DNA of 64,000 bases. It comes from Candidatus Bathyarchaeota archaeon. GTDB taxonomy: Archaea > Thermoproteota > Bathyarchaeia > 40CM-2-53-6 > RBG-13-38-9. Each line of letters opens with the position of its first letter. The stretch's first letter is position 1. The stretch spans positions 448,377 through 512,376 of the forward strand of contig CAWECG010000003.1 of the NCBI GenBank assembly GCA_963807605.1. The letters are read 5' to 3'. The notes beneath the pieces were generated by a model. That model ran no database searches and was not told the origin of the DNA. It was given only the letters and a program-made list of their open reading frames with translations. Positions 15,853 to 59,207 of this stretch are shown piece by piece. The translations under genes and the position numbers were made by a program.

Positions 15853-15854
15853 AT

Positions 15855-38849: not shown

Positions 38850-38901
38850 TCTTCTTTATGTCGTGCGCGTCAAAGCGTCGAATGGAGCGCATGTATTTCT
38901 G

Positions 38902-39723: not shown

Positions 39724-39842
39724 GTAGCCATATTTTATCTTTGAGAATGAACCCCGCTCGACTGGTAAGCCCTTGACTTATTACAATTGAGGGTAAATCT
39801 TACAGTTATTTCCGATCTATGCGCCCAATGTGAGTATAGTAT

Positions 39843-44297: not shown

Positions 44298-44459
44298 ACC
44301 TCCCCTCCAAGTGCAACTTTCAACATATCACAATTTCGTCTTTCAGCTTCTGATATGATAACCTATCCAGCGGATCAAGTGATTATCGGGCATCCGCACC
44401 ATCCTAAAAGTTTATTAGAGTAACACTAATCAGCGAAATCGTAATACTGGTGACTTACC

Positions 44460-45233: not shown

Positions 45234-45532
45234 TACTGGTTCCCGTGGGTCTGTTGGCTCCGGGATCGGCGTTTGCCGAATGGAGTGCTTCCGAGCTGGA
45301 AACACTATTTGGGATCACGCCTCCTGCAGGGCTCACCAGCTTGGAAGGATTATACAATGCTCCTTTGAGTGGCTACAGCGTGCCTGGAGCAACGACCTTC
45401 ACCCAACTTAGCCTGGCGTATATCCTCGCAGCCGCCATTGGGGTATCTATTTTCGGTTTGTGTCTTTTCGCGTTCTACCGAGTTAAATCAAGAGCTATCG
45501 TCTCAGATGCTGTACCTCCAGAAGAGGCGTGA
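45212..45532 (+). CDS. cbiN: CbiN/NikN small membrane component
   Basis: 106 aa with two terminal TM helices flanking an extracytoplasmic loop, as in CbiN. Position is between cbiM and cbiQ. Confidence 0.55.
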   Translation: MLLAVLVVLVPVGLLAPGSAFAEWSASELETLFGITPPAGLTSLEGLYNAPLSGYSVPGATTFTQLSLAYILAAAIGVSIFGLCLFAFYRVKSRAIVSDAVPPEEA

Positions 45533-45538
45533 TTTCAG

Positions 45539-46483: not shown

Positions 46484-46524
46484 AATGACTCAAAGATAGT
46501 GGGCTCGTCTTCGAGCTACAGAAT

Positions 46525-47301
46525 GTGGGCTATTCATACTCTGGCAATCATTCCGCCCTGAGTGACGTATCGATGAACGTTAAAGCTGGGGAGTCAATCG
46601 CCATTCTCGGAGCGAATGGCTCAGGGAAATCGACGCTCCTCAAAATATTATGCGGTCTAATCTTCCCCTCGTCAGGAACCGTCAAAGCGTTTGGGTCTAC
46701 ATTAAGTGAAGCGGGAATGGAGTTGAACAGAAGTGAATTCGCCCGCTACTTCAGACGAAGGGTGGGAATGGTGTTTCAAGATGCTGATTCTCAGCTATTC
46801 TCGCCCGTGGTCTGGGAAGAAGTGTCATTCGCTCCTCTGCAACTTGGCCTGTCTCAACAGAACGTGGAGAAACGGGTGAATGAAGCGCTTTCTCTCTTGA
46901 GAATTCAGCATCTCAGAAATCGTAGCCCACAGAGCTTGAGTGAGGGCGAAAAGCGGAAAGTGTCTTTAGCGTCCGTTCTTTCATTGGGTCCCGACATTCT
47001 CCTGCTCGATGAGCCCAGCTCAGATCTCGACCCCCGCACTAAAGTCTGGCTAGAAGGATTTCTCAATGAATTGCATGATAGCGGCAAGACAGTCATTATG
47101 GCTACTCACGATCTTGAACTTGCAGCCGACACGTCAAACCGCTGTATCATCCTTGACGAGCAACACAGCATTGCAGGCGAGGGACCAACAGAAGAAATGC
47201 TAGGGAACTGGGATCTTCTGTTGAATGCTAACCTAGTGCACGTTCATGCGCACAAACACGGACAAGTTCTTCACATCCATCCGCATGCCCACTCGGAATG
47301 A
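46525..47301 (+). CDS. cbiO: ECF transporter ATPase CbiO with His-rich C-terminal tail
   Basis: Walker A (GANGSGKST), ABC signature (LSEGEKRKVSLA), Walker B (LLLDEP). The C-terminus is HVHAHKHGQVLHIHPHAHSE. Confidence 0.85.
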   Translation: MGYSYSGNHSALSDVSMNVKAGESIAILGANGSGKSTLLKILCGLIFPSSGTVKAFGSTLSEAGMELNRSEFARYFRRRVGMVFQDADSQLFSPVVWEEVSFAPLQLGLSQQNVEKRVNEALSLLRIQHLRNRSPQSLSEGEKRKVSLASVLSLGPDILLLDEPSSDLDPRTKVWLEGFLNELHDSGKTVIMATHDLELAADTSNRCIILDEQHSIAGEGPTEEMLGNWDLLLNANLVHVHAHKHGQVLHIHPHAHSE

Positions 47302-47475
47302 AATTCAGGCCATTTCGATTCCCAAGCCGAATCTCGTTCGATCCCGTTTGCCATTCACTATTTCAAGAAAACTCAGTCCAAACCATGAAAGGTCTGCAAG
47401 TCGTAGACTAACGATTGCTTTGTCGGGTAATCAGCGAAATCATGCAGAAAGCCAACGGAGGGCTCTAGCCTGACA

Positions 47476-47513
47476 ATATTGATTGGTAGCGCGGACTAGC
47501 TGGCAGGCTACCG
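47476..47513 (+). terminator. hairpin plus T-run downstream of the cbi operon (candidate terminator)
   Basis: 'ggtagc gcggactagctggcag gctacc' (6-bp stem) is immediately followed by 'gatttttt'. Confidence 0.3.
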
Positions 47514-47816
47514 ATTTTTTAGTGCCGCAGCTCTAAGGATTCCCTTCTCAGTCAGCCTGTACAGGAATTTGTGGCCTACCCTCCTTCTTTCCAGAAGCCC
47601 CTGTCGATAATATCGGACAAACCTCATGGCGATAGTCTTCCTGCCAGGCACTTTGCCCTCCCTAAACATTAAAACGTGCTTAACATCAAATAACCTGTGA
47701 TCGAGTTCCCCAGTCCTATGGGAAAGATAGCCCTCAACTGAAAACCAACTATCAGGAGCCAAACCCAACGTATGAGCCTTGACAGCCGGTCTTACAAGAC
47801 GTTTAAGGGAATGCAA
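47508..47816 (-). CDS. hypothetical protein with C-terminal winged-helix-like segment
   Basis: 102 aa; LLERRRVGHKFLYRLTEKGILRAAAL resembles the recognition helix and wing of a wHTH. Confidence 0.35.
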   Translation of the reverse strand: MHSLKRLVRPAVKAHTLGLAPDSWFSVEGYLSHRTGELDHRLFDVKHVLMFREGKVPGRKTIAMRFVRYYRQGLLERRRVGHKFLYRLTEKGILRAAALKNR

Positions 47817-47842
47817 TACTAGAGACCACGTGAAGAACCCAA

Positions 47843-47864
47843 GGTAACATCTTGAGATGTTACC
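47843..47864. promoter_or_regulatory. perfect 9-bp inverted repeat with 4-nt spacer (candidate operator) just upstream of 47508..47816
   Basis: 'ggtaacatc ttga gatgttacc', located 27 nt upstream of the start codon of the wHTH gene. Confidence 0.3.
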
Positions 47865-48027
47865 TTTACCTTTCTAAACTTTACAATACGTTTCTTACTC
47901 AATTAAGTATGATAAAATACTCAAACCCATAGATCGTAGGGCGCGGCTGGGCACCCAGACAGAAGATTCTTACCCTTAGAAACCACGCGTAACCGCTCTC
48001 ATTCTGGCTAGTCTTAGCAAACGAGCT

Positions 48028-48062
48028 CTAGCTCATCAGCTAAGGCGCACACACAAAATCAC
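48028..48062 (+). repeat. partial copy of the dispersed repeat (3' half)
   Basis: 'ctagctcatcagctaaggcgcacacacaaaatcac' carries the core agctaaggcgcacacac. Confidence 0.65.
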
Positions 48063-48081
48063 ATTCAACTTTCGTTGTTTC

Positions 48082-48834
48082 TCATTTCTCTCCAGCGATA
48101 ATACCTATCGTTCCCACCATAAATGGCAATTTTAGCGCCAGAGGAATAAAGGCAGCTTCTCGTGTTTCTATAAATTGCGCGTTTCTTATCCCCCAACTTC
48201 GGATAGTCTCAATCAAATCAGCTGTATTGCCATATATCTGCCTCCGCAAGAACAAGTCCTGAAAGACAAATATTCCCCCCTTCTTAACCACACGCAATGC
48301 TTCCCGGATAACTTCTCGCTTATCTTTGGTGTCCCTCACTTCATGAAACACGAGATTGCTTACAACCGCATCAAAATACCCATCCTCAAATGGTAACGCC
48401 GAAGCGCTGGCTTTCTGGAAGGTTACACGCTCATCTACTCCTTCAATCTTCGCATTGCTTTCACATGTGTTTTTTGAGTATCCCCACCGTCTTCCCCAAG
48501 AGTCAATTCCCACAACCCGGCCTCTCGCATACTTTTGAGCAAGCTTGATCGTAAGGGCACCATTTCCACATCCTATATCCAATGCGCGCCCTTCTCCATT
48601 CCAATCCAAATGTGCCAAAACCAATTCAACGATATGGTCTTGGATATTCCCCCCTTGGGCAGAAAACTTGTATCGCGCATACGCACAATAGAGGGAAACT
48701 AGGAAGAACAAACCAGCAGGAATTACGAAGACTGGAAACAAAAGGGCAACCCCCAAAAACACGAGACCTGCAGCACCAGGAATATAGACTAGTCTCTTTG
48801 AGAGCCAGTTCCCGTATTCTGGCTTTCCTGCCAT
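48082..48834 (-). CDS. class I SAM-dependent methyltransferase with N-terminal membrane anchor
   Basis: Motif I (LDIGCGNGALTIKLAQ), motif II (VVGIDSW) and a later DAVVSNLVFHEV; two N-terminal hydrophobic helices. Flanked by repeat copies on both sides. Confidence 0.7.
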   Translation of the reverse strand: MAGKPEYGNWLSKRLVYIPGAAGLVFLGVALLFPVFVIPAGLFFLVSLYCAYARYKFSAQGGNIQDHIVELVLAHLDWNGEGRALDIGCGNGALTIKLAQKYARGRVVGIDSWGRRWGYSKNTCESNAKIEGVDERVTFQKASASALPFEDGYFDAVVSNLVFHEVRDTKDKREVIREALRVVKKGGIFVFQDLFLRRQIYGNTADLIETIRSWGIRNAQFIETREAAFIPLALKLPFMVGTIGIIAGEK

Positions 48835-48955
48835 TTGTACATCCCTTTCTTTTCCCTTCTCGACACTCTACTATGCGCCAACCTGTGCATATATGAAGTT
48901 AAACAATGCGAGCGGCGTAGCGAACAGCATAGATGCGTATGTTCACCAAAAGATA

Positions 48956-49010
48956 CACAAAAATCACGATTCAAATCATGATGCTCTCACCAGCTAAGGC
49001 ACACACACAG
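48956..49010 (+). repeat. full copy of the dispersed repeat
   Basis: 'acaaaaatcacgattcaaatcatgatgctctcaccagctaaggcacacacacag'. Confidence 0.7.
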
Positions 49011-49251
49011 TACTTAAACGACGATCAACGACCCAGTGAGGCTTAAGAGAGTCTTGAAATATCATTTCTACTGAGTTGAATTGAAGGCATAGCCTCTGAT
49101 AACGGAGGGTTAGTCCATTTATCCTCAGAGTTACCCATATGCGTCACAGTTTGGTCCCCCACCTGCATATCCACCCCTGCCGCTACCTTTCCAAAGAGGT
49201 CCAACAATCTCCGCTCCGACCGCTTCCAAAGTTGCAGGCATATTACTGATA

Positions 49252-49902
49252 TTGAGTGGTGCTCTCACACTCATTCTCGTGTCTTTTGACAAGATACTCT
49301 GGTTATCCTCGACTTTCAACGCTGTTGCGCTCTTAGTTTTCGCTATTATAGATCTGCTTCTGGGCGTTATCCTCTTCATTCGGCCTTACACGTACATCTT
49401 CATCCTTGTAACGGTCTGGAGTATTGTGCGAATCGCAATATGGTTCGGCGTCATTGTACAAGGTCCAAATTATGGGCTGACGTACGCTCAGTTCGCCGAC
49501 TACCTTTTCAACCCTATCGCCGTTAACCCGCCGAACCCTCCAGGCGTACCCGGTATTCTGACTGACCCAATCATAGTCTTAGAGATACTAGTTATCATCT
49601 TTGCACTGCTGGGTTACCATGCATATTCACACCTGACGCCTTTCCTCGGCTACATTCCGCTTCCCAGTTTTGCCGGTTATCCACCAGTTATAGGACCTGC
49701 ACCGTTCCCGAGGTTTCCACCAAGATTCGCGCCAAGCGCACCACTAGCTTTTGGACGGTCGCCTTATTATGGAGCACAACGATGGGGCGTTCCACATGCG
49801 TACGAGACTTGCAGGTATTGTGGGCAACAATTGATAGCCAGTGCTGACCGACACATGGATTATTGTCCCTACTGTAACAGGCATCAATGGCATCATGTCT
49901 AG
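49252..49902 (+). CDS. Pro-rich polytopic membrane protein with C-terminal zinc ribbon
   Basis: 216 aa with four or more TM helices, a Pro-rich segment (PPVIGPAPFPRFPPRFAPSAP) and a C-terminal CRYCG..x12..CPYC. Confidence 0.45.
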   Translation: MSGALTLILVSFDKILWLSSTFNAVALLVFAIIDLLLGVILFIRPYTYIFILVTVWSIVRIAIWFGVIVQGPNYGLTYAQFADYLFNPIAVNPPNPPGVPGILTDPIIVLEILVIIFALLGYHAYSHLTPFLGYIPLPSFAGYPPVIGPAPFPRFPPRFAPSAPLAFGRSPYYGAQRWGVPHAYETCRYCGQQLIASADRHMDYCPYCNRHQWHHV

Positions 49903-50060
49903 AACAATAAAGCGCGCGCTTAACCCAATTTCATCCTAGAAATGTCCATGTGGATGTTCACGTCGGAAAAGCAGCATCCACGTGACCACACCAAACAGCC
50001 AGATGTATGTATCCCCTGTCCCCTGCTGAGCGACGACGACGGTGTGCATATGATGATGCA

Positions 50061-51212
50061 CTATGGTTCGCCGACTATCTTGAAAGTTACGGGATATCTT
50101 GCCACATCGTTCCTTATGACCTTAGCCTTGTGTTTGAAAACAAGACCTTGAGTGTCACGCGAGAACATTTGACTTGTAATAACGACCGCTGATATTGTGG
50201 AGTTCTTGCTCAGTACCCGTTTGACCATAGTGTCAAGCCTCCTGAAGTCTTCATCCATCATTTGGCGATCTATGCTGTTCAGATCCACGTAGATCATACC
50301 GGGCTTATTTCCGCTCAACTGCTTCTTTGCCTTAGTTATGGACTCGATGACGCTCTTTATGCGATCGGGCATAATTGCACACTTGAAACCAAAAATCCTC
50401 GGATTTCTAATTACAGGTTGATCCTCTTTCTTTTCCATAGCGAAAACAAAAAAGTCCAGTTCTTCTGTCGACGCAAATTCCATCGAGTGAGATGTGATTG
50501 GGAGGTCATACTGCGAAAGTATCTTCACGGTTATTTCGATACCTTTCTCAGGAAACGCGAAGCGTCCTTGTTGTTTGCTCTTCATGAAACGTCTGAGCTC
50601 ATGAAGAATGAATTCAACATTCTCTTGCGTTGGATCACGTTGGGTCTTGACAACGAAGCCATAATTACACTTTAAATGATTCATGATAGCGGAGGCCTTC
50701 TGCATGATAAGCTTCCAGTACCCGTGGTTCCGCCTATCTCTTTGTGACAGTTTATCTTTTTGCTTGCATTCAACTTCTACCTGTTCGTCAATTTCCATTT
50801 CTGCCGTTTTGATCTTTTCGTCAGGTTTCTCCTTCAAGAATGCGACCTTATAATTCGCTCTTGCGTATGCCGATGCAACTTGCAGTTCATACACAGTCTT
50901 CTCAAATAGCTCTGATGAAACCGTGAGATTGCGTATTTTGCAGTCTAGTCGTTTTACGCTATTCTGACGAAGTATCGACAAACTCTCGCCGAGATGAGCC
51001 AATCGCATCATTTCTTCTGTCACATTCTCATTCGCGCCAGAGACTTCTAGCTGCTTATCCACTTGATGAATAAGGACTGCGAGTGGGTGATACCGATCTG
51101 TATAGTCGACGAAGGTCAGCCTTGTCTTGTCTTTTGGCGGAGCGTAAGACTTGATTTTCTGAAGCTCACTACTCAACCAATCACGGTCAATTACGCCTTT
51201 CACTTCGGACAC
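50061..51212 (-). CDS. hypothetical protein (383 aa), possible PD-(D/E)xK-like core
   Basis: No recognisable family. The segment ..YELQVASAYARANYKVAFLKE..EMEIDEQVEVECKQ has a D ... E-x-K pattern with strand-like hydrophobic context. Weak evidence. Confidence 0.35.
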   Translation of the reverse strand: MSEVKGVIDRDWLSSELQKIKSYAPPKDKTRLTFVDYTDRYHPLAVLIHQVDKQLEVSGANENVTEEMMRLAHLGESLSILRQNSVKRLDCKIRNLTVSSELFEKTVYELQVASAYARANYKVAFLKEKPDEKIKTAEMEIDEQVEVECKQKDKLSQRDRRNHGYWKLIMQKASAIMNHLKCNYGFVVKTQRDPTQENVEFILHELRRFMKSKQQGRFAFPEKGIEITVKILSQYDLPITSHSMEFASTEELDFFVFAMEKKEDQPVIRNPRIFGFKCAIMPDRIKSVIESITKAKKQLSGNKPGMIYVDLNSIDRQMMDEDFRRLDTMVKRVLSKNSTISAVVITSQMFSRDTQGLVFKHKAKVIRNDVARYPVTFKIVGEP

Positions 51213-51258
51213 ATGAGTGCATCTTCAAATGAAATGTCCCTCACATACCTGCAACTCC

Positions 51259-51492
51259 CTATGGTGAACGTTCGAGTCTGGCGAGGACTTTGGAGTACAT
51301 TCGGAAAGGTGTTCTGCCGGCCGCATTCTTGCGAAGGTGATGCAGTGTACTCTTAGCGATTCCTGGTTTAGAGGCTTGCTTTTGAGTCAACTCTAGGATT
51401 CGTTTACGAAGCTCCACACTATAGCTTTCTACCAGGTTGGGAGGCGCGCGCGCTTTTATATTTTCATTCTCTTCCGGCGAGAATATCTTCAA
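51259..51492 (-). CDS. small hypothetical protein (77 aa), possible HTH
   Basis: A basic C-terminus with LTQKQASKPGIAKSTLHHLRK. Overlaps the 3' end of the next gene by 29 nt. Uncertain. Confidence 0.25.
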   Translation of the reverse strand: MKIFSPEENENIKARAPPNLVESYSVELRKRILELTQKQASKPGIAKSTLHHLRKNAAGRTPFRMYSKVLARLERSP

Positions 51493-52084
51493 TTGGCGGG
51501 AAAGGAGGCTCAGCGCCTATTGAGGAGATCCTGCCGGTTGGGCATACAACATAGCAATGGTTGCATACTGTGCATATTGCTGCCTTTTCAGGGTAGAGCG
51601 CAATCCGTCTCCTTACGCCTCTTCCCACAGATCCAATCGCGCTATCCCAAGTCGCCTCAATGCACCGACGAAGACATAACCCACATAGGATGCATTTCGT
51701 GGGGTCGCTCTGCACCTTTGAGCGGAATCTAGAGAGATCAGCCTTGTATTCGCCGGCCAATTCGCGCATCCTGCCAGCGACATCTTCTCCCGCAGATGCG
51801 GCAGCCAACTCGAGTATGGTCTTTCTCATAGAATCGATTCTGGGAGACCTCGTTCTTACCTTCAAGCCTTCCTCAGCAGGGTAGCAGCACGCAGCGACTA
51901 TCCGTGATCTGCCTCTCTTCTCGATCTCCACGCTGCAGATGCGACAGACGCCATACGACTCCAGCTCCTCGTGATGGCACAGCGTCGGTATCTCCACGCC
52001 TGAACACTTTGCAGCCTCCAGAATCGTCATTCCCTCTTCGGCTTCAACATCTCTATCGTCTATTCTCAAGCTTAGAGCCTTCAT
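51464..52084 (-). CDS. stand-alone NuoG/HydA-N-terminal-like iron-sulfur protein ([2Fe-2S] plus [4Fe-4S] domains)
   Basis: 206 aa with a 2Fe-2S ferredoxin-type N-terminus (CHHEELESYGVCRIC), a His/Cys cluster region (ACCYPAEE), then CILCGLCLRRC and CTVCNHCYVVCP. No catalytic molybdopterin or H-cluster domain follows. Confidence 0.7.
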   Translation of the reverse strand: MKALSLRIDDRDVEAEEGMTILEAAKCSGVEIPTLCHHEELESYGVCRICSVEIEKRGRSRIVAACCYPAEEGLKVRTRSPRIDSMRKTILELAAASAGEDVAGRMRELAGEYKADLSRFRSKVQSDPTKCILCGLCLRRCIEATWDSAIGSVGRGVRRRIALYPEKAAICTVCNHCYVVCPTGRISSIGAEPPFPPIEDILAGRE

Positions 52085-52093
52085 GATCTAACC

Positions 52094-54013
52094 TCATCTT
52101 TTCCGGATTGGTTTCATTCCCTTTGGTGGTGGAGGTGGAATCGGTTCTCCTGATGATTTCCTGACCGCGTCGAACTTGCAGACCTCGTAGCACGCTCCAC
52201 ACTTCGAGCATTTCTCTTGTGTGATCCAGTGAACTTGCTCCTTTTCGCCGTTGATAGCATTAGTCGGGCATGCCTTTAGGCATAGTAGGCAGGCTTGGCA
52301 TCTCTTGGGCTCTATGTAGTAGTTAATCAGAGCTCTGCAGGCTTTGGCTGGACAACGCTTTTCCCTCAAGTGTTGTTCCCACTCGTCTCTGAAGTACTTC
52401 AGAGAAGTGAGCACTGGATTGGCTGCGGTCTTGCCTAACGCACATAGGGAAGCCTCCTCCATCGTCTTGGCTATTTCTTCAACTATCGACATGTCTTCAT
52501 TGTTGCCTTTTCCGGCGCAGATGTCTCCCAGAGTGCTGGAGAGAACTTTCAGTCCTTCTCGGCATGGAATACATTTGCCGCATGACTCCTCAAGCAAGAA
52601 ATCTACAAAGTACTTTGACGCATCAACCATGCAGGTGTTCTCATCCATGACCACCATGCCGCCAGATCCCATCATGGATCCGACCTTAGTGAGCTCGTCA
52701 AAGTCTACTGGAAGGTCGAGATACTTGTCAGGGATGAAGCCTCCTGATGGGCCGCCGGTTTGTACTGCTTTGAATCTCTTGTCACCCCTAATTCCTCCGC
52801 CGATCTCGAAGATTAGGTCTCGGAGGCTAATTCCCATAGGAACCTCTACAAGGCCTGTGCTGTTTACCTTGCCGACAAGTGAGAAGATCGCGGTTCCGCT
52901 GCTCCCTTGTGTCCCGATCTTCCTGAACCATTCTGAACCATTCAGGACTATCAACGGAACAGTGGCCCATGTCTTGACGTTGTTAAGGCAGGTGGGTTTG
53001 CCCCACAGCCCCTTTACCGCTGTGTGAATGTATTTTGGCTTGGGTTCGCCAATCTTACCTTCGATCGCTGACATGAGAGCGCTGGACTCTCCCGAGACGA
53101 ACGCTCCAGCACCTCTGTGTACCGTCACCCTAAAACTGAAACCTGACCCCATTATGTCTTCGCCAAGCAGTCCATAATCTTCGGCCTGCTTGATGGCGGT
53201 CGACACATTCTCCGCTGCTATGGGGTATTCTTCTCTCACATAGACGAAGCCTTTGTGGGCTCCGATCGCATAAGCTCCTATTGTGAAGCCCTCAAGTACG
53301 CTGTGAGGGTTATCCTCCATAAGCGATCTATCCATAAAGGCGCCAGGATCTCCCTCGTCGCAGTTGATGATGACGTACTTGGGTTCTTCAGGGGCGTTCC
53401 GTGTGGTCTCCCATTTCAGTGCGGTTGGAAAGCCTCCTCCACCACGGCCACGCAGGTTTGCCTTCTTGATTTCATCAACAACTTGTTGAGGTTTCATCTC
53501 GAAGAGGGCTTTTGCAAGGGCGTTGTACCCGTCGAATGCAATGTAATCTTCAATGCTCTTCGGGTCTAATTTTCCATTATTCTCCGTCAGTATCCTAAGC
53601 TGGTGCTTGTAGGAAGGTATCTCCTGGAGCTTATTTGATCTCTTGCCTGTTGCTGGATCTTTGTACAGCAGCCGCTCAACAATCTGCTTATTCTTAACAG
53701 TCTTTGAGACTATTTCCGGGGCATCTTCAGCCTTTACCCTGAAGTAACAGATCTCCTCTGGGTAGATCGTGACTGTGGGGCCTTGTTCACAGAAACCTGA
53801 ACATCCAGTCCCCTTGAGCCCCACCTCGTCCTTTAGTCCCTGCTTTTCAAGCTCGGCTTTGAAAGCTTCCATGACTTTGAAGGCGCCGAGTGCAACGGAG
53901 CATGTGCTGACGCTGACTAAGATTCTGCGCTGATTTTTAGTTTGATTCGCTGTGATTGTCTTACGGAGGCTTCCAAGGTCTTTGGGTGATTTTATTCGGG
54001 TTACAACTGCCAA
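52094..54013 (-). CDS. NuoF-like NAD(P)H-binding flavoprotein with N-terminal Trx-like [2Fe-2S] and C-terminal 2x[4Fe-4S] (HydB/NfnB-type architecture)
   Basis: 639 aa with a Trx-like 2Fe-2S (CSVALGAF..GCSGFCEQGP), a NuoF core (GRGGGGFPTALKWE; EESCGKCIPCREG) and a C-terminal CQACLLCLKACP and CSKCGACYEVCKFDA. Confidence 0.8.
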   Translation of the reverse strand: MAVVTRIKSPKDLGSLRKTITANQTKNQRRILVSVSTCSVALGAFKVMEAFKAELEKQGLKDEVGLKGTGCSGFCEQGPTVTIYPEEICYFRVKAEDAPEIVSKTVKNKQIVERLLYKDPATGKRSNKLQEIPSYKHQLRILTENNGKLDPKSIEDYIAFDGYNALAKALFEMKPQQVVDEIKKANLRGRGGGGFPTALKWETTRNAPEEPKYVIINCDEGDPGAFMDRSLMEDNPHSVLEGFTIGAYAIGAHKGFVYVREEYPIAAENVSTAIKQAEDYGLLGEDIMGSGFSFRVTVHRGAGAFVSGESSALMSAIEGKIGEPKPKYIHTAVKGLWGKPTCLNNVKTWATVPLIVLNGSEWFRKIGTQGSSGTAIFSLVGKVNSTGLVEVPMGISLRDLIFEIGGGIRGDKRFKAVQTGGPSGGFIPDKYLDLPVDFDELTKVGSMMGSGGMVVMDENTCMVDASKYFVDFLLEESCGKCIPCREGLKVLSSTLGDICAGKGNNEDMSIVEEIAKTMEEASLCALGKTAANPVLTSLKYFRDEWEQHLREKRCPAKACRALINYYIEPKRCQACLLCLKACPTNAINGEKEQVHWITQEKCSKCGACYEVCKFDAVRKSSGEPIPPPPPKGMKPIRKR

Positions 54014-54016
54014 AGT

Positions 54017-54670
54017 CTAGGCCTGCCTATACTTGGATAGGACCTTTTCCACATCAGGTAGTTTGAGGTTGCCGTGATATTCCTCGTTGACGGTCATGAC
54101 TGGGCCCAGGGCGCAACAGCCTACACAATTGACGGTCTCAAGACTGAATTTACCATCGGCGGTTGTTCCTTCCCTATCCACGTTGAGGGATTTCTCGGCC
54201 TGTTCAAGAATCGTTTGAGAGCCTCGAACTTTGCAGGATGTTCCCATACAGACCCGGACGAGGTGCTTCCCCCGAGGAGCAAGAGAAAACGCCTTGTAGA
54301 AAGTTGCGATCTGGTAGACTTGGCTGATGGGTACATTCAGCTGCTTGCTCACCTCTGACAGCATCTCTCTTGGAAGCCAGCCGAAGCTTCGTTGCAGTCT
54401 CAAGAGGATCTGGATGAGCATACTCTTGTCATGTCCATACTCTTCCACTGCTTTATTCACTATCGCTGCGACTCCACGCAGTTTCACGGCCTTTCGTTTG
54501 ATCGAGGCCCTTTTCTTCAATTCTAAGTCCAACTTCCTTCGACCCAAAACGGAGGCTATATCTTCAGGTACCTTTACCTTGTAACGACATTGCGGGCAAG
54601 TGGCATAGTATTGGTTCTGACCCTGGTAGTCCCATTTATAACCGCAATGCTGGCAAGCTAATTCAACCAT
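54017..54670 (-). CDS. NuoE/HoxE-like [2Fe-2S] thioredoxin-fold subunit with N-terminal zinc-ribbon extension
   Basis: A NuoE core (VCMGTSCKVRGS ... VNCVGCCALGPV) preceded by about 35 aa with CQHCG..x15..CPQC. Confidence 0.75.
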   Translation of the reverse strand: MVELACQHCGYKWDYQGQNQYYATCPQCRYKVKVPEDIASVLGRRKLDLELKKRASIKRKAVKLRGVAAIVNKAVEEYGHDKSMLIQILLRLQRSFGWLPREMLSEVSKQLNVPISQVYQIATFYKAFSLAPRGKHLVRVCMGTSCKVRGSQTILEQAEKSLNVDREGTTADGKFSLETVNCVGCCALGPVMTVNEEYHGNLKLPDVEKVLSKYRQA

Positions 54671-54843
54671 GGCTAAGATTACTACCTACCTACCCACAAA
54701 CTAGAAGGTCACATATTTGAGTCTTTTTCGAACCCCTGGACTGGCCCAAGTCAAATAGATCGGGCTGGCAGCCGCTGCAAAGGGATCTCAGGTTATGTCT
54801 CATGCTTTTATACACGATTTCCTCCGCTATGACTGGATGATCG

Positions 54844-55860
54844 TTGTCGAGGACTGAAGTTGGCATAGGAGTTGTAGGATTAGGGTTTGTCGGCGAGAAA
54901 GCCCATCTTCAAGCCTTTCGGTCGATCCAAGGAGCTAAGCTAATCGCGATAGCCGACGTGGATGTCGAACGCGCGAGGAAGGCAGGGGAAAAATTCAAGC
55001 TAAGATCAGTGTATTCCAACCATCAGGATCTGATCAAGGATCCCAACGTAGATGCAGTTGTAATCTCAGTCCCAACCTTTCTCCACCACCAAATTGTGAC
55101 GGATGCTTTGAGGGGGGGCAAACATGTCCTATGTGAGATGCCATTGGCCCCAACGTTGAAGGAAGCTTACGAAATTGTCGACGAGGCCAAGAAAGCAGGT
55201 GTCGTCTTTATGCCGAGTCTGAACTTCAGATTCACACCAAATTATGTTAAGATGAAAGAGTTGATCGATCAAGGCTCGATCGGAAATCCGGTAGCGGCAC
55301 TCTACAGAGAGTTCATTCCTGCCAAGGATTTGGCATTGCAATGGCCACCGGGATCGTGGGCGTGGGACGACAAAAAAAGTGGAGGGGGCCCGGCGTTTAC
55401 ACTATCTGTATGGTCGATTGATCTTTTACGTTGGCTCCTCAAAGCGGATGTTGAGGAAGTTCATTCTGTTTTGAGAAATGTTAGTCTGCGTGAGCTGGGC
55501 GGAACTATTGGATACACTTCCCTCGCAGTTCTTAAATTCTCAAATGGAGCGGTCGCAACTCTCCAGTTCAGTGGGCTCGTCAGGCCCTCGATGAGCGATA
55601 GTAAACTGGAAGTTCTAGGTGATAACATGAATGGGCTGGTCGCAACTGGTAATGATGGTCTAGGTCTCAACGCTTCCGATCCGGACAAACAGGAATGGGT
55701 CTTTCGAGAGAAAGGAGCAAAAGTTTGGGGTCATTACCAAGAAGATGAGCACTTTGTGAGATCAATTCTGCAGAACAAAGAACCTCTCATCACCGTAGAT
55801 GATGCCCTAAAGGCTCAAGAGGTAGCCACTAGGATACTGCAGCCAGCACACGCCTCTTAA
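54844..55860 (+). CDS. Gfo/Idh/MocA-family NAD(P)-dependent oxidoreductase
   Basis: 338 aa with an N-terminal Rossmann fold (IGVVGLGFVGEKAHLQAF), the family motif (EMPLAPTLKEA) and a C-terminal alpha/beta dimerisation domain. Confidence 0.8.
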   Translation: MSRTEVGIGVVGLGFVGEKAHLQAFRSIQGAKLIAIADVDVERARKAGEKFKLRSVYSNHQDLIKDPNVDAVVISVPTFLHHQIVTDALRGGKHVLCEMPLAPTLKEAYEIVDEAKKAGVVFMPSLNFRFTPNYVKMKELIDQGSIGNPVAALYREFIPAKDLALQWPPGSWAWDDKKSGGGPAFTLSVWSIDLLRWLLKADVEEVHSVLRNVSLRELGGTIGYTSLAVLKFSNGAVATLQFSGLVRPSMSDSKLEVLGDNMNGLVATGNDGLGLNASDPDKQEWVFREKGAKVWGHYQEDEHFVRSILQNKEPLITVDDALKAQEVATRILQPAHAS

Positions 55861-55926: not shown

Positions 55927-57144
55927 TTATTCGCTTTCTAGGAGTAGAAGGTCTGGATCCTCAAGATATTTGATAATCGTATTTACGAATCTCGCCGCCA
56001 TCGCGCCATCAATCACCCTATGATCGAAGGATAGGGATAGCGGGATGATCTTTCTTATGACGACCTTTCCGCCTCGAACAACGGGTTTCTCATAGATTCG
56101 TCCCGTGGCCAAAATTGATGTCTCGGGGTAGTTGATTATCGGCGTTGCGTGAAGACCCCCAATGAAGCCGATATTGGTAATGGTGAAAGTCCCGCCCTTC
56201 AGATCTGCTAGGTTGACTGTTCGGGATCGTGCCTTTTCAGCCAAGTCTTGAATCTCGTTGGCGATCTTGAGTATGCTCTTCTGATCAGCACCCTTGACCA
56301 CAGGAACAATTAGACCTTCGTCGGTGTCTACTGCTACCCCGATATTGTAGTACTTCTTGAGAATGATTTCTTCATGCTCATCGTCAATAGAGGAGTTCAG
56401 ATAAGGATATTGTTTGAGAGCTGCAATTACAGCTTTGATCACGAAGGGTACGTATGTTAGGTGGATGCCATTTTTTTCTGAAACCTCATTCTCCTTTTCC
56501 CTGATCTTGACAAGATGGGTTACATCCGCCTCATCCATATGCGTTACATGTACTGCTGTCCTGCTTGACTCAATCATCTTCTTGGCAGTGCTTTTTCTTA
56601 CGCCCTTCATTGGTAGAGCTTCAATGTATCCGTAAAGGTCGTATTTCCTCGCAATCTTGGTAACTTCCAGTTTCCTCCCTTTTTCTTCTGCAAATCTTCT
56701 CACATCATCTTCTGTTATTCGACCTTCCAAACCCGTTCCCTTAACCTGGGAGATCTCGATGCCCAATTCTCTTGCAGCTCTCCTTGTGGCCGGTGTCGCA
56801 AGTATTTCGGGAGGTCCTGCTGTGGCTTCAGGTGCCTCTTCGAGGACGCCGACGACTGAGGCTTTAGGCTGAACAGGAACTAATTCCGGCCTCTCAAACT
56901 TCTCTCCAGGCTCCACTATGGTTACTAGTGTCTCTCCGACTTTGACGGTATCTCCTTCTTTATGGTGGATCCTTAGTATTCTTCCACCTAGCGGAGAGGG
57001 TATCTCGACTACGGCCTTATCCGTCTCTATCTTGACGATGGGTTGATGTTCCTGAACCGTGTCTCCTTCTTTGACCTCCCACTCTACTATTTCTCCTTCA
57101 GTAATCCCCTCACCAACGTCTGGAAATTTGAAATTCGTTGGCAT
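55927..57144 (-). CDS. 2-oxoacid dehydrogenase E2 (dihydrolipoamide acyltransferase)
   Basis: Lipoyl domain with IETDKAVVEIPSP, an Ala/Pro linker, an E3-binding domain (PATRRAARELGIEISQVKGTG) and a catalytic domain with the DHRVIDG motif (SFDHRVIDGA). Confidence 0.85.
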   Translation of the reverse strand: MPTNFKFPDVGEGITEGEIVEWEVKEGDTVQEHQPIVKIETDKAVVEIPSPLGGRILRIHHKEGDTVKVGETLVTIVEPGEKFERPELVPVQPKASVVGVLEEAPEATAGPPEILATPATRRAARELGIEISQVKGTGLEGRITEDDVRRFAEEKGRKLEVTKIARKYDLYGYIEALPMKGVRKSTAKKMIESSRTAVHVTHMDEADVTHLVKIREKENEVSEKNGIHLTYVPFVIKAVIAALKQYPYLNSSIDDEHEEIILKKYYNIGVAVDTDEGLIVPVVKGADQKSILKIANEIQDLAEKARSRTVNLADLKGGTFTITNIGFIGGLHATPIINYPETSILATGRIYEKPVVRGGKVVIRKIIPLSLSFDHRVIDGAMAARFVNTIIKYLEDPDLLLLESE

Positions 57145-57154
57145 AACAAAGCCT

Positions 57155-58129
57155 CTAGAAGCTCGCTGTCTTTTCCAGTGCTGTCATAATCTTTTCCACG
57201 TCTGGAAGATAATAGTTCTCCAGCTTGAAGAGTGGAAAAGGAACATCTAGGCCTGTGACCCGCGCAATCGGGGCCTCTAAACTTAGAAAGACTTTCTCGT
57301 TGATGAGCGCGGTGATCTCAGCACCGAGCCCGCACGTCTTAGGCGCTTCATGGACGATTACGGCTCTTCCTGTCTTCTCAACGGATTTGACCACGGTTTC
57401 GCTATCTAAAGGTGAGAGAGTGCGAAGGTCAATGACCTCTACGCTGATCTTATTTCCTTCCTTCTCAGCAGCTTCCAGAGAAGGTCGCATCATTGCGCCC
57501 CAAGAGATCACTGTGACGTCGCTGCCCTCTCGAACTACCTTTGCCTTGCCGAGTGGTACGACGTAATCTTCCTCAGGTACATCGCCCCTGACTGCGCGGT
57601 AAATTCTCTTCGGTTCCATGAAGATTACGGGGTCAGGGTCTCTGATGGCTGAGATGAGTAGGCCTTTCGTATCGAATGGTGTCGACGGTGTTGTGACTTT
57701 GATACCTGGAGTATGGACGAGATACGCTTCAGGGCTGTCGGAATGGTGTTCGGGCGGGCGTATCCCTCCGCCGTACGGAACTCTAACTACAAGTGGTACG
57801 TGGAATCTCCCGCGAGAACGGTTTCTTATCTTTCCAGCATGGGATATGATCTGGTCCAGTGCGGGGTATAGGAAACCCTCGAACTGAATCTCTGCCACTG
57901 GCCTCAGGCCGTATAACGCCAAGCCTATTGCGACACCCACTATTCCAATTTCGGAGAGTGGTGTATCTATCACTCTGTTCTCTCCAAATTCGTCTACCAG
58001 GCCTTCAGTCGCTCTGAAGACTCCGCCGTTTCTCCCTACGTCCTCTCCCAAGATCAGGACATTTGGGTCTCTCGTCATCTCTTGCTGGAGGGCGGACTTT
58101 ACGGCTTGGACGATATTCAGCTCAGCCAT
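57155..58129 (-). CDS. 2-oxoacid dehydrogenase E1 component beta subunit
   Basis: The transketolase-like beta subunit begins at MAELNIVQAVKSALQQEM.. (about 58129), overlapping E1-alpha by 8 nt. The track ORF (to 58312) adds ~60 implausible residues read through the alpha gene. Confidence 0.85.
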   Translation of the reverse strand: MAELNIVQAVKSALQQEMTRDPNVLILGEDVGRNGGVFRATEGLVDEFGENRVIDTPLSEIGIVGVAIGLALYGLRPVAEIQFEGFLYPALDQIISHAGKIRNRSRGRFHVPLVVRVPYGGGIRPPEHHSDSPEAYLVHTPGIKVTTPSTPFDTKGLLISAIRDPDPVIFMEPKRIYRAVRGDVPEEDYVVPLGKAKVVREGSDVTVISWGAMMRPSLEAAEKEGNKISVEVIDLRTLSPLDSETVVKSVEKTGRAVIVHEAPKTCGLGAEITALINEKVFLSLEAPIARVTGLDVPFPLFKLENYYLPDVEKIMTALEKTASF

Positions 58130-59207
58130 TTCGCTCGACTCCTCTGGATCGCAAGAGTTCTTCGTACTGTGTCTTGAGGTGTGGTGGCAACTCGGCGTAC
58201 GTCCAGACGAAGAGGTCTTTGATCTCTTGAGGAGTAATGGATTCTGCCTTCTGGACGGCTTGTTGAACCTTTGCCATGGCTTCTGCTTGGACTCTCTTTT
58301 CGTACTCCTCATTCCAGAGTCCCTTGTGCTGCAGATACTTGCGTAACCTATCTACTGGATCTCGTTTGATCCATGCTTCCAACTCTTCCTTTGGCCTGTA
58401 TCTTGACGCGTCATCGGAGGTTGTATGGTCGGCTATTCTGTAGGTGACACACTCGATCATTGTGGGACCTTTGCCTGACCGGGCTTTCTCTAGAGCCTCT
58501 TTGGTAGCCTTGTACACGGCGAACACATCATTCCCATCAATTTGGATTCCTTCGAAGCCGTAAGCCAGCGCTTTCTGAGCTAACGTTTGCGAAGCAGTCT
58601 GTCGGCTTCTAGGGACCGATATTGCCCACTGATTATTCTCACATACGAAGACTATTGGTACCTTGAAGGTTCCGGCGAAATTAGAGCCTTCGTGAAAATC
58701 TCCTTTGGATGTTGCTCCGTCTCCAAGATAGACTAGGACCGCTTTTCGATCTCCTTTAAGTTTGGCGGCCCAGGCGAAACCGACTGCGTGAGGAATTTGG
58801 GTTCCCACGGGAACGGCGACGGTGAAGGCGTTAATGTTTTCTGGAATCTTATTCCCTCTTTCATCTCCGCCCCAATATTCATAGAGCATCTCCATCGGCA
58901 AACCCATGGCGATATATGCAGGATTTTCTCTAAACGATGGAAACATCCAGTCAGAACTCTCGAGAGCATACACGCTTGCCACCTGAGCAGCTTCCTGCCC
59001 CCTGGCTGAAGCATAGGTTCCGATCCTGCCTTCACGCTGCAACTTTACAGCAACATCATCGAAGGTTCTGGATAAGATCATCAATTCAAAAATTTCCTTG
59101 ATCTGGCTGTCAGATAGGTCAGGCTTCAGCGCTTCGTCACAATTTCCCTCCTCGTCAAGAATCTTCAAAATGGGAACATCGAATCTTGTGACAATCTCTC
59201 GTGGCAT
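58122..59207 (-). CDS. 2-oxoacid dehydrogenase E1 component alpha subunit (TPP-dependent)
   Basis: 361 aa with a TPP motif (GDGATSKGDFHEGSNFA ... ENNQWAIS) and a phosphorylation-loop-like region (YRIADHTTSDD). Confidence 0.85.
   Translation of the reverse strand: MPREIVTRFDVPILKILDEEGNCDEALKPDLSDSQIKEIFELMILSRTFDDVAVKLQREGRIGTYASARGQEAAQVASVYALESSDWMFPSFRENPAYIAMGLPMEMLYEYWGGDERGNKIPENINAFTVAVPVGTQIPHAVGFAWAAKLKGDRKAVLVYLGDGATSKGDFHEGSNFAGTFKVPIVFVCENNQWAISVPRSRQTASQTLAQKALAYGFEGIQIDGNDVFAVYKATKEALEKARSGKGPTMIECVTYRIADHTTSDDASRYRPKEELEAWIKRDPVDRLRKYLQHKGLWNEEYEKRVQAEAMAKVQQAVQKAESITPQEIKDLFVWTYAELPPHLKTQYEELLRSRGVERNG

Follow-up and report, generated by a model that had tools for sequence, protein, structure and literature searches.

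[quoted passage not shown] 2022 (PMC9304861), where the archaeal members are few and belong to the Nfn, Fdh, F420 and NiFe types. The same survey notes that a histidine at the B2 site is present in virtually all BfuB proteins and missing in non-bifurcating homologues. A solved example is WorABCSL of Acetomicrobium mobile (PDB 9MQX), described as a 'plug' in which cluster A4 links a bifurcating ABC core to WorSL, a distinct module with iron-sulfur and catalytic parts (PMC12318220).

We have examined a locus in a 64-kb stretch of DNA from a Bathyarchaeia archaeon, referred to here as the window, which extends past the operon by 9.3 kb at its promoter end (to position 64000) and by 51 kb at its 3' end. 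The three co-directional, tightly spaced genes of the original prediction are all open reading frames on the minus strand, with 3 nt between bfuC and bfuB and 9 nt between bfuB and bfuA by ORF coordinates. Judged by its sequence, this trio is the BfuCBA core of the Bfu family: the InterPro and Pfam domains that define BfuB, BfuC and BfuA are all found, the matches to Pfam and to solved structures are far above chance level, and in a neighbor-joining tree the clade containing the window adjoins Por-Bfu, cdh-linked and F420-Bfu (Type 1 and Type 2) enzymes. The flanking genes are those originally described, a Gfo/Idh/MocA oxidoreductase and a protein of no assigned family; the former is probably not a subunit of the trio, and presumably both promoters lie in the gap between it and bfuC.

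Table. Coordinates of the trio, its flanks and two sequence elements within the window.
Feature	Coordinates	Strand	Description	Basis
bfuC	54017..54670	-	NuoE/HydC-like [2Fe-2S] subunit, 217 aa	PF01257
bfuB	52094..54013	-	HydB-type flavoprotein, 639 aa, TTG start	Pfam
bfuA	51464..52084	-	predicted minimal 'Type 2' BfuA, 206 aa	PF13510 + Fer4
BfuC N-terminal zinc ribbon	54566..54670	-	residues 1-35, CQHC...CPQC	
BfuA conserved C-terminal tail	51467..51517	-	PPFPxxDD[IV]LAGR	nearly invariant in BfuA alignment
Divergent intergenic region, bfuC / Gfo/Idh/MocA	54671..54843	.	173 bp	sequence read directly
Gfo/Idh/MocA NAD(P)-dependent oxidoreductase	54844..55860	+		PF01408, PF22725, PF02894
383-aa protein	50061..51212	-	no family	Pfam

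BfuC matches PF01257 over residues 72–215 (E 7.6e-51), and the cysteines that ligate its cluster C1 (C141, C146, C182 and C186) are invariant in the alignment. Its best solved-structure matches are HydC of NiFe-HydABCSL (7t2r_C, 133 bits), FeFe HydC and WorC (9mqx_C). The N-terminal zinc ribbon attributed to this NuoE-like protein at the outset is borne out by relatives, in which its paired CxxC motifs are kept in frame (L001, L002, L003, L083 and L089) even where gene callers set a later start; a linker of some 35 residues, rich in Lys and Arg, comes next, and a search with the ribbon's own peptide patterns found it in 66 metagenome loci. The isolated module matches chiefly small stand-alone proteins of 40–100 aa, the best full-length match of BfuC size being P0287 (213 aa), and the ribbon is missing in the Por-Bfu and Chloroflexia relatives.

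BfuB has the HydB/NfnB-type layout expected of it, with a Trx-like N-terminal domain (B5 site; a weak PF01257-like match), the FMN/NAD(H) domain (PF01512, 4e-44), SLBB, the B1 [4Fe-4S] domain (PF10589, 3e-29), the B2 site and a C-terminal 2x[4Fe-4S] domain (B3/B4) in that order. Residue-level alignment places the B1 ligands at C478, C481, C484 and C524 and those of B2 at C461, C499, H548, C554 and C559, H548 being the equivalent of the diagnostic histidine; the GRGGGGFPT and DEGDPGAF loops are both retained, as are eight cysteines at B3/B4, which would be the ferredoxin-reactive end. Against solved structures, BfuB scores 754 bits with 7t2r_B, 728 with WorB (9mqx_B), 707 and 684 with HydB and 660 with NfnB, the solved bifurcating HydB, WorB and NfnB proteins together spanning 754–622 bits; these enzymes score about twice as high as Nqo1 (339 bits) or FdsB, and the protein thus does not group with complex I. 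The B5 site departs from the family pattern, having S34/C38/S39 where relatives have C34...C39, such that the canonical first cysteine is gone and C38, C71, C75 and perhaps C89 are left. Because an S/N34-C38 pattern is also found in at least three further lineages (L091, L093 and L101), we take this to be a conserved variant rather than damage; an active archaeal NfnABC has Zn at B5 (PMC12018979).

BfuA contains PF13510 (2.4e-18) and a 2x[4Fe-4S] ferredoxin domain, and in the Pfam scan has neither the PF10588 domain of the His-ligated (A3) cluster, nor A5, nor a catalytic domain. It was originally read as the NuoG/HydA N-terminal Fe-S domains and nothing else, which is right as regards the lack of a catalytic domain; without the His-ligated cluster, however, it is not the full N-terminal set, and its predicted content is exactly the A1, A2 and A4 of a minimal Type 2 BfuA. 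The ligands are C36, C47, C50 and C66 for the A1 [2Fe-2S] cluster, and C131, C134, C137 and C141 together with C171, C174, C177 and C181 for the two [4Fe-4S] clusters; all 12 cysteines are invariant in 18 homologues with identity down to 58%. Stand-alone proteins of this kind, about 206–209 aa long, form a large family (1879 matches). The closest solved match is WorA (9mqx_A, E 1.3e-30, residues 9–189), which is also the top Foldseek match of the BfuA model, itself weak (pLDDT 68.6). A motif related to the C-terminal tail, F..[DE]D.LAG, is found in the BfuAs of a Dehalococcoidia Por-Bfu (L004) and of a Chloroflexia lineage with the trio embedded among cdh genes (L006). The conserved cysteines and tail suggest that an outward-leading wire has been retained; any docking role of the tail, or of the BfuC ribbon, is one that we only infer.

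Relatives often hold the same trio beside genes for CO dehydrogenase/acetyl-CoA synthase, whereas the core in the window has no catalytic partner within 64 kb. The Pfam scan, which covered all ORFs of at least 300 aa and most smaller ones, found no hydrogenase, formate dehydrogenase, Hdr, CODH or AOR; tblastn of the window with Cdh, CooC, FrhB, Nfn and the other neighbor families gave no match, and a six-frame scan of the window found no [NiFe] large-subunit motif. AOR/WOR, polyferredoxin, GltD-like, cdh and FrhB-like genes are likewise absent from it. The reported absence of an adjacent hydrogenase, formate dehydrogenase or Hdr catalytic subunit therefore extends from the operon to the whole of the window.

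We have compared the surroundings of the trio in 53 dereplicated lineages, mainly Bathyarchaeia, of which 26 have at least 3 kb of sequence upstream, 19 serve as the downstream denominator and 16 have both flanks. The gene order C-B-A is kept at every locus that has the genes. An archaeal cdhABCDE cluster lies divergently upstream in eight of the 26; downstream, a pair of cooC-like genes is present in eight of the 19 and an FrhB-like gene with cofC/cofE in four of the 19. In L105 and L107 this FrhB slot is taken by a second Bfu set, one with a BfuA-FrhB fusion, which the ANME-1 lineage L008 also has. An NfnAB-like pair adjoins the trio in six lineages. Outside the clade, L006 has the trio within a cdh operon, between cdhA and cdhB, and L004 has porGDAB directly before it, which is the Por-Bfu arrangement. 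The neighbors are thus heterogeneous, yet all are enzymes linked to ferredoxin or NAD(P)H. Within the subclade of the window they are ferritin-like genes and the divergent Gfo/Idh/MocA gene, whose orthologues occupy an equivalent position and are 70–96% identical (L083-86, L090-97, L101, L118 and L153) and which is limited to this subclade (5/26 lineages with at least 3 kb upstream). The eight cdh-linked lineages fall into about two subclades of the neighbor-joining tree, the window's subclade not among them, and the linkage may therefore reflect few evolutionary events or inherited synteny.

On balance we think it somewhat probable that the trio is a bifurcating or confurcating NADH-ferredoxin core, with BfuA as its electron link to a partner encoded elsewhere. 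BfuB would bind FMN and NAD(H), and the bifurcation site would consist of BfuB, cluster B1 and the mobile [2Fe-2S] cluster C1 of BfuC; low-potential electrons would pass between B3/B4 and ferredoxin, and BfuA would act as a three-cluster wire (A1-A2-A4) through which the core and a third redox module exchange mid-potential electrons. For a fermenting archaeon with a supply of both NADH and reduced ferredoxin, the expected direction is confurcation, with NADH (from 2-oxoacid dehydrogenase, IDH or Gfo-type dehydrogenases) and reduced ferredoxin (from 2-oxoacid:ferredoxin oxidoreductase) yielding electrons of about -400 mV for the partner. Because no gene for the third module adjoins the operon, docking of the core with a partner encoded at another locus is the most likely arrangement; there being none in the window, location in trans is an argument from relatives. 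Across the clade the archaeal CODH/ACS (Cdh) is the candidate with the best support, perhaps acting with an F420 module of the FrhB type; for the window's own subclade, a ferritin-like diiron protein is another candidate. Two points weigh against the reading as a bifurcating core with a partner: the altered B5 site of BfuB, and the potential of the confurcated electrons, which at about -400 mV would be too weak for CO2 reduction to free CO under standard conditions, a step that would work only at very low steady-state CO.

The original prediction left a choice between a diaphorase and a partner in trans, and the neighborhoods of relatives favor the latter without settling the matter. If the trio were a complete soluble ferredoxin:NAD(P)+ oxidoreductase, ferredoxin (at B3/B4 or BfuA) and NAD(H) (at FMN) would exchange electrons, and the two pools would be equilibrated with no third substrate. 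We regard this as rather unlikely, even though the three-gene operon is autonomous and keeps its order while its surroundings change completely, two of the 16 lineages with both flanks (L001 and L110) have no recurrent neighbor, the shared use of ferredoxin or NAD(P)H by the recurrent neighbors fits pool balancing, and two papers describe the HoxEFU subcomplex as a ferredoxin:NAD(P)H oxidoreductase (PMC11647496, PMC7363133). The characterised Bfu enzymes need a third substrate for reduction of NAD+ and ferredoxin (PMC9304861), and uncoupled transfer from reduced ferredoxin to NAD+ loses about 200 mV. Moreover, BfuA-less (Type 4) cores exist, so a core needing no third site could drop BfuA, yet all of its ligands are invariant here; the BfuA-FrhB fusions of sister systems and the trios within cdh and por operons also argue that A4 serves a partner.

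A detached NADH-input (N) module, belonging either to the 11-subunit Nuo/Fpo/Hfo-like membrane complex that Bathyarchaeia have or to one of the Ech/Mbh type, is an improbable identity for the trio, although genome papers have interpreted such clusters along these lines, as for the NuoEFG cluster of Bathyarchaeum tardum (PMC10477458), and Schut et al. predict Mbh-Bfu and Nuo-Bfu enzymes, the former using a small A1/A2/A4 BfuA (PMC9304861). In one lineage (L110), NuoB/C/D-like genes bearing [NiFe] motifs do lie 2.4 kb away from the trio, but nuo, fpo and mbh genes are absent from the window and from beside the trio in 52 of the 53 lineages. In complex I the N5/A3 cluster is the exit towards NuoI. 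BfuA has neither this His-ligated cluster nor the large NuoG C-terminal domain, Nuo-Bfu is of Type 3 and has A3 (PMC9304861), and we reject a complex I NuoEFG identity given the low Nqo1 score and matches that fall below the NuoF and NuoE equivalog cut-offs. Still less probable is a HoxEFU diaphorase of a group 3d bidirectional [NiFe] hydrogenase with HoxYH elsewhere: hoxEFUYH is known in some Bathyarchaeia (PMC7886697), JGI annotation labels several BfuA homologues 'bidirectional [NiFe] hydrogenase diaphorase subunit', and HoxE and HoxU are the top NCBIfam partial matches, but their scores (143 against a cut-off of 224, and 112 against 333, respectively) are far below the equivalog thresholds, for which reason this identity too is rejected, and the best HoxU stretch spans residues 1–96 only. 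BfuB furthermore carries the C-terminal 2x[4Fe-4S] domain and B2 histidine that mark bifurcating HydB, and [NiFe] motifs, absent from the window, occur in the flanks of just two of the 53 lineages, one group 4-like and one group 3b-like, neither of them a HoxH adjoining the trio. Finally, the module could be decaying or inactive in this genome, in view of the lost B5 cysteine, an apparent insertion of about 7.5 kb downstream of bfuA relative to relatives, and a 1-bp indel that splits bfuB in a second assembly of the locus (Logan contig ERR10755942_384217). We consider this extremely unlikely: the three ORFs are intact in the window, all other cofactor ligands are retained, the B5 pattern is shared, and the indel is probably an error of assembly, the 12-kb alignment that contains it having two gaps and 99.98% identity elsewhere.

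Returning to the core with a partner in trans, comparison with known systems shows what is shared and what is distinct. The three subunits are homologous to those of complex I NuoEFG and HoxEFU, with the same order of cofactor domains, but BfuB carries additional cluster domains at both termini as well as the B2 site, and no nuo or hoxYH genes adjoin the trio. F420-Bfu and Nfn-Bfu (Type 1) have the same BfuA N-terminal domain, fused to an FrhB-like or GltD-like domain, whereas BfuA in the window is unfused. The predicted Codh-Bfu (bacterial CooS/CooF with BfuABC; PMC9304861, PMC12318220) likewise ties the trio to CODH genes, as seen in the eight sister lineages and one Chloroflexia MAG, together with cooC maturases; the linked CODH of these relatives is, however, the archaeal five-subunit Cdh (ACDS) rather than CooS/CooF, and the archaeal trio is a divergent neighbor of the cdh operon rather than inside it. 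WorA has A1, A2 and A4 but no A3, like BfuA, and WorB and, at 126 bits, WorC match their counterparts; the C-terminal part of WorA comprises a zinc finger and an alpha-helix adaptor for recruiting WorS, while BfuA stops some 60 residues sooner and has a conserved tail of another kind, and BfuB residue 499 is Cys here and in NiFe-HydB but Thr in WorB. With Bfu Type 2 enzymes the trio shares both the BfuBC core, with FMN, B1, the B2 His/Cys site, B3/B4 and C1, and a small BfuA restricted to A1, A2 and A4; it differs in having no co-encoded third-substrate subunit, in the shifted or missing cysteine of its B5 site, in the additional zinc ribbon of BfuC, and in its archaeal host.

The three co-directional, tightly spaced genes of the original prediction lie on the minus strand, 3 nt and 9 nt apart, and their sequences place them securely in the family of HydABC-type electron-bifurcating enzymes of Schut et al. 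(2022; PMC9304861), in whose terms the BfuA of this BfuCBA core would be a minimal one of Type 2. The order C-B-A holds in every locus where the genes are present, and the flanks are those described at the outset, a Gfo/Idh/MocA oxidoreductase gene and a gene for a 383-aa protein of no family; with one qualification concerning BfuA, the first description was right on every point that could be checked. The window DNA is archaeal, encoding A-type ATPase A, B and D subunits, TFE-alpha, aTrm56 and archaeosine TGT domains, and the nearest named homologues of the trio are in Candidatus Bathyarchaeia MAGs, with others in Hadarchaeales and Heimdallarchaeota MAGs. Farther out, the window encodes three components of a 2-oxoacid dehydrogenase complex (E2, E1-beta and E1-alpha); the window ORFs that were scanned include no gene for E3 (dihydrolipoamide dehydrogenase). 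As called mechanically, the E1-beta ORF starts with a basic extension that is implausible and overlaps E1-alpha; the public gene call is 324 aa. A DDE transposase gene lies where the G+C content climbs to 0.51 (8-10 kb), the first 8 kb of the window being at 0.42-0.44.

Coordinates of the bfu genes and of other window features discussed in the text
Feature	Position	Strand	Remarks
ORF1 (bfuC)	54670-54017	-	217 aa; NuoE Trx-like [2Fe-2S] domain PF01257 (E 7.6e-51)
ORF2 (bfuB)	54013-52094	-	639 aa; TTG start; Pfam domains in text
ORF3 (bfuA)	52084-51464	-	206 aa; Fer2_4 PF13510 (E 2.4e-18), then 2x[4Fe-4S] ferredoxin domain, nothing more
Gfo/Idh/MocA oxidoreductase	54844-55860	divergent from trio	assigned by Pfam
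383-aa protein	50061-51212	-	no family; flank of trio on bfuA side
E1-alpha, E1-beta and E2 genes	55927-59207	-	2-oxoacid dehydrogenase complex
E1-beta mechanical ORF	57155-58312	-	
Region of apparent insertion	43686-51463		about 7.5 kb extra
NikR, LarB-like and LarE-like genes	38319-40751		AIR-carboxylase-like (LarB-like); PP-loop ATPase (LarE-like)
2-oxoacid:ferredoxin oxidoreductase	34595-37680		four-subunit type
DDE transposase	9984-10610	-	

BfuB contains the Nuo51 FMN domain (PF01512, 4e-44), SLBB (PF10531), the NuoF [4Fe-4S] domain (PF10589, 3e-29) and, at its C-terminus, a 2x[4Fe-4S] domain (PF00037/Fer4 dicluster), with a weak match to a Trx-like ferredoxin domain at its N-terminus, so that both Pfam and the alignment to HydB bear out the predicted HydB-type layout. 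Equivalents of IPR011538, IPR019554, IPR019575 and IPR017896 are all matched, the set by which BfuB is defined. In a comparison with solved structures, HydB (7t2r_B) of the bifurcating enzyme NiFe-HydABCSL gives 754 bits, WorB (9mqx_B) 728, FeFe HydB 707 and 684, and NfnB of an Nfn-Bfu 660, as compared with 367 for the non-bifurcating FdsB and 339 for Thermus Nqo1; the grouping with complex I NuoEFG that would have refuted the original prediction is thus not seen. Residue-by-residue alignment to 7t2r_B shows that the FMN/NAD loops are kept, that the B1 ligands are C478, C481, C484 and C524, and that the B2 ligands C461, C499, H548, C554 and C559 correspond to C438, C476, H525, C531 and C536. 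The B2 residues are retained in nearly all of 31 members of the clade that shares the zinc-ribbon trio (one has a Tyr at 499, and truncated sequences appear as gaps); the B2 histidine is reported in virtually all BfuB proteins and is missing from non-bifurcating homologues (Schut et al. 2022, PMC9304861). B3/B4, the ferredoxin-reactive end in this family, is accounted for by eight cysteines, which fall into a CxxCxxCxxxC motif at 572-582 and another at 602-612. The B5 site departs from the family pattern CxxxxC...CxxxC, being S34-x3-C38-S39, C71 and C75 in the window protein; C34-x4-C39 is present in 109 of 121 homologues, and the S/N34-C38 pattern is common to three sister lineages. This departure need not argue against function, because an active archaeal NfnABC carries zinc at B5, its bifurcation site being FMN, B1 and C1 (PMC12018979).

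Several further observations concern BfuB. At seven loci (L119, L120, L125 and L135-L138), representing four zinc-ribbon lineages, the protein is only 565-570 aa and lacks the C-terminal 2x[4Fe-4S] (B3/B4) domain, so that the usual site of reaction with ferredoxin would be missing from these cores. Four NCBI proteins named [Eubacterium] cellulosolvens (P0116, P0165, P0203, P0206) are BfuB and BfuA sequences 65-72% identical to archaeal ones, which could reflect misbinning, contamination or horizontal transfer. The window locus is also present in a second public assembly, a 27.7-kb Logan contig (ERR10755942_384217; L157) that is 99.98% identical, in which a 1-bp indel, probably an assembly error, breaks bfuB (8071-9991) into 408-aa and 184-aa genes.

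BfuC has the NuoE-type thioredoxin-like [2Fe-2S] domain (IPR002023) with invariant C1 ligands C141, C146, C182 and C186. The extra zinc ribbon proposed at its N-terminus (CQHC...YYATCPxCRYKV) is genuine and conserved in frame in all close relatives, and gene callers often begin the gene downstream of it; the ribbon is absent from the Chloroflexi relatives of the trio. Peptide patterns of the ribbon by itself retrieved 66 metagenome loci, with the same trio in all of them wherever the contig permits. Taken in isolation, the ribbon has hundreds of look-alikes among small stand-alone proteins (40-100 aa), and its best full-length match of BfuC size is the protein P0287.

BfuA combines 2Fe-2S and 4Fe-4S ferredoxin-type domains (PF13510, Fer4 dicluster), and 12 cysteines are invariant across 18 homologues down to 58% identity, a set that by its sequence corresponds to one putative [2Fe-2S] and two putative [4Fe-4S] clusters. 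The original view of this protein as N-terminal Fe-S domains and nothing else stands as to its extent, but the set of domains is itself incomplete: Pfam gives no match in the 206 aa to the His-ligated cluster domain PF10588. Its best solved relative is WorA (9mqx_A; E 1.3e-30, query 9-189 against WorA 10-186), in an alignment that spans the whole N-terminal domain. An AlphaFold model built with 18 sequences is mediocre (pLDDT 68.6, with the C-terminal half below 60 and the tail uninterpretable), and although its top Foldseek match is again 9mqx_A, the fold search confirms only what the sequence already gives. The tail motif PPFPxxDD[IV]LAGR is conserved, and a related motif is present in Por-Bfu and cdh-embedded BfuAs.

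No catalytic subunit adjoins the trio, as originally noted, and no third-substrate domain or subunit for BfuABC was found in the operon or elsewhere in the 64-kb window. A Pfam scan of all window ORFs of 300 aa or more, together with the majority of the shorter ones, revealed no hydrogenase, formate dehydrogenase, Hdr, CODH/ACS, AOR, FrhB or Nfn; a six-frame scan of the window yielded no [NiFe] large-subunit motifs, and tblastn of the window with the neighbour families of relatives, including Cdh and CooC, gave no match. The window does hold a four-subunit-type 2-oxoacid:ferredoxin oxidoreductase, rubrerythrin, peroxiredoxin, a CbiMQO transporter, aconitase, isocitrate dehydrogenase, a Zn-dependent alcohol dehydrogenase, a corrinoid protein, a B12-radical SAM enzyme and a transposase. 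NikR lies beside the LarB/LarE-like genes, which suggests nickel-pincer cofactor synthesis; three related loci (L083, L091 and L093) show synteny between the LarB/LarE pair and the trio. The 383-aa protein was rejected as a subunit: it matches no Pfam or NCBIfam family, has only four scattered cysteines and no cluster-type Cys motif, and has 34 homologues, of which one is a named example from an Altiarchaeales MAG; in every relative its gene is absent beside the trio.

We compared neighbourhoods across 53 lineages (the window, exact look-up loci and metagenome loci, dereplicated at 97% BfuC identity), checking families of recurrent neighbours by Pfam. CODH/ACS is the most frequent neighbour of the trio: of the 26 lineages with at least 3 kb of upstream sequence, 8 have an archaeal cdhABCDE operon upstream in divergent orientation, and on the downstream side 8/19 have a convergent pair of genes for cooC-like ATPases, beyond which come a GNAT gene, an FrhB-like gene (4/19), cofC and cofE. 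The cdh-linked lineages form about two subclades, so that few evolutionary events may underlie the count, and the window's subclade is not among them. In two loci (L105 and L107) the FrhB slot is taken by a further set of Bfu genes, an F420-Bfu in which BfuA and FrhB form one protein; the fusion fills the slot in L107, where sister loci have a stand-alone FrhB-like gene. Such BfuA::FrhB F420-binding fusions are seen in Bathyarchaeia (L107, 15476-16960, minus strand) and in ANME-1 (L008, 10007-11410, plus strand). An NfnA/NfnB-like pair adjoins the trio in six lineages, in varying orientation, and in five a family-less, Cys-rich protein of about 200 aa follows BfuA. At one locus (L110, 15282-20012, minus strand) genes for 2-oxoacid:ferredoxin oxidoreductase alpha and beta run straight on into genes for NuoB-, NuoC- and NuoD-like proteins and for a 2x[4Fe-4S] protein, convergent to the trio and 2.4 kb off; the NuoD-like gene has both [NiFe] motifs, and the cluster may be one for a pyruvate-oxidising hydrogenase.

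The Gfo/Idh/MocA gene is divergently upstream in 5 of the 26 lineages, plus four short contigs, and in a neighbour-joining BfuB tree this group is the window's own subclade, which also shares synteny of aconitase, peroxiredoxin and LarE/LarB. Because the gene is confined to one subclade it is unlikely to encode a functional partner; in L083 it adjoins a UDP-glucose/GDP-mannose dehydrogenase-family gene and an epimerase-family gene. In L091/L094, L110 and the L083 group the gene after BfuA is a co-directional one for a ferritin-like diiron protein, an arrangement that recalls the predicted Rub-Bfu (L091, 13276-14442; L110, 13342-13845; L083, 10383-10889). One of these continues into a long, hydrophobic C-terminal region, presumably membrane-spanning, and a truncated remnant is present in L093. 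Aconitase lies 0.4-1.5 kb past bfuA in L091 and L093 and 7.8 kb past it in the window, so that the extra stretch, located where relatives carry the diiron gene, is an apparent insertion; it carries the gene for the 383-aa orphan, a zinc-ribbon membrane protein, a methyltransferase and the CbiM/Q/O-type Ni/Co transporter.

A search of GTDB genomes with the BfuA alignment returned mostly distant HydA/NuoG N-terminal domains and, among the matches listed, one Bathyarchaeia locus. It also yielded two Chloroflexi loci outside the clade. In the Dehalococcoidia locus L004, porGDAB directly precedes the trio, as in the Por-Bfu of Schut et al.; in L006, from a Chloroflexia MAG (4048-20376), BfuC-BfuB-BfuA interrupt an archaeal-type cdh operon, with cdhA on one side and cdhB on the other. 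L006 has another BfuC-BfuB pair after cooC and DUF3786, and the BfuA of the locus lacks three cysteines of the second [4Fe-4S] motif. The window 2-oxoacid:ferredoxin oxidoreductase, the alpha subunit of which is 47% identical to that of L004, was considered as a Por-Bfu partner in trans and set aside, as this value is not discriminating, the enzyme being the sole one of its kind compared.

Both functional options of the original prediction, an NAD(P)H:ferredoxin diaphorase or a partner in trans, are still apt, and the contexts of the relatives better support the second. A self-sufficient ferredoxin:NAD+ oxidoreductase is a serious rival, since the operon is autonomous and its varied neighbours are all ferredoxin- or NAD(P)H-linked. 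We nevertheless favor a partner that would be encoded elsewhere, because characterised Bfu enzymes are tightly coupled systems with three substrates (PMC9304861), and because the clade keeps every ligand of a three-cluster wire running to the surface even though cores without BfuA exist. Likewise, the nearest relatives have this BfuA domain either as a fusion with FrhB or within por and cdh operons, and WorA illustrates an A1/A2/A4 BfuA acting as a plug for a separate module (PMC12318220). As to which partner, the nearer hints for the window's subclade are diiron and peroxide-related genes of the kind predicted for Rub-Bfu. A more elaborate form of the partner-in-trans reading is that the stand-alone BfuCBA would be a general-purpose bifurcating plug of Bathyarchaeia and relatives, docking reversibly on several separately encoded enzymes through A4 of BfuA and perhaps the zinc ribbon of BfuC. 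Its principal partner would be archaeal CODH/ACS, in a supercomplex, Cdh-Bfu, that would either use NADH together with reduced ferredoxin to drive carbonyl-branch CO2 reduction or reduce both carriers by CO/acetyl oxidation; we regard this full scheme as speculative and rather unlikely.

The Bfu family, Type 2 BfuA and BfuB clades without assignable function are already published (Schut et al. 2022, PMC9304861). Our literature search found no description of Cdh-linked or orphan archaeal Bfu, of a large archaeal clade with a zinc-ribbon BfuC, of its free-standing three-gene operon, or of its recurrent link to archaeal Cdh-type CODH/ACS. Genome papers file the trio as NuoEFG or HoxEFU, but by sequence it is a bifurcation-type Bfu core, one of a large, conserved, partner-less clade that recurs beside archaeal CODH/ACS genes. 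Few archaea of sediments are as abundant as the Bathyarchaeia, for which the balancing of NADH against ferredoxin is not a settled matter. The Bfu placement together with the cdh linkage provides a testable hypothesis, that fermentation is coupled to CO2 reduction or, more generally, to mixed-reductant disposal. A Cdh-Bfu, if real, would be an energetic solution not yet described for archaeal acetogenesis from organic substrates, and a plain ferredoxin:NAD+ oxidoreductase would be the first Bfu-type core shown working without a third substrate. As a natural minimal BfuABC with a three-cluster BfuA, the trio could also serve mechanistic work on these poorly understood enzymes.

Comparison with known systems shows that the published readings, as the NADH module of a Nuo/Hfo-like complex (PMC10477458) or as HoxEFU (PMC7886697), fit poorly. 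NuoG has the His-ligated N5 cluster and a molybdopterin-like C-terminal domain, whereas BfuA has neither, and NuoF lacks the extra cluster domains of BfuB. The curated equivalog cut-offs for NuoF, NuoE, HoxE and HoxU are all missed (TIGR01959 for NuoF, 457.8 against 558.65; HoxE, 143.2 against 224; HoxU, 111.9 against 333), and the NuoG model matches residues 7-93 only. No nuo genes are present in the window, nor is there a [NiFe] large-subunit motif, and the trio is not accompanied by hoxYH, which would be expected to adjoin it in a group 3d HoxEFU(YH) enzyme. In CODH-linked Bfu systems the CODH genes are in the BfuABC cluster, an arrangement that eight sister lineages and L006 have and the window does not. 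WorABCSL is closer in one respect, as WorA has A1, A2 and A4 and no A3 (PMC12318220) and its N-terminal domain is matched by BfuA; however, WorA continues into a C-terminal zinc finger and helix adaptor, whereas BfuA stops at residue 206 with a different tail, and the Pfam-scanned ORFs of the window include no AFOR-domain (AOR-family) counterpart of worS/worL. Whereas the third-substrate module expected with BfuABC is absent from the window, the domains that define BfuB, BfuC and BfuA in the Bfu family, the B2 site and the B3/B4 domain are all present in the trio.
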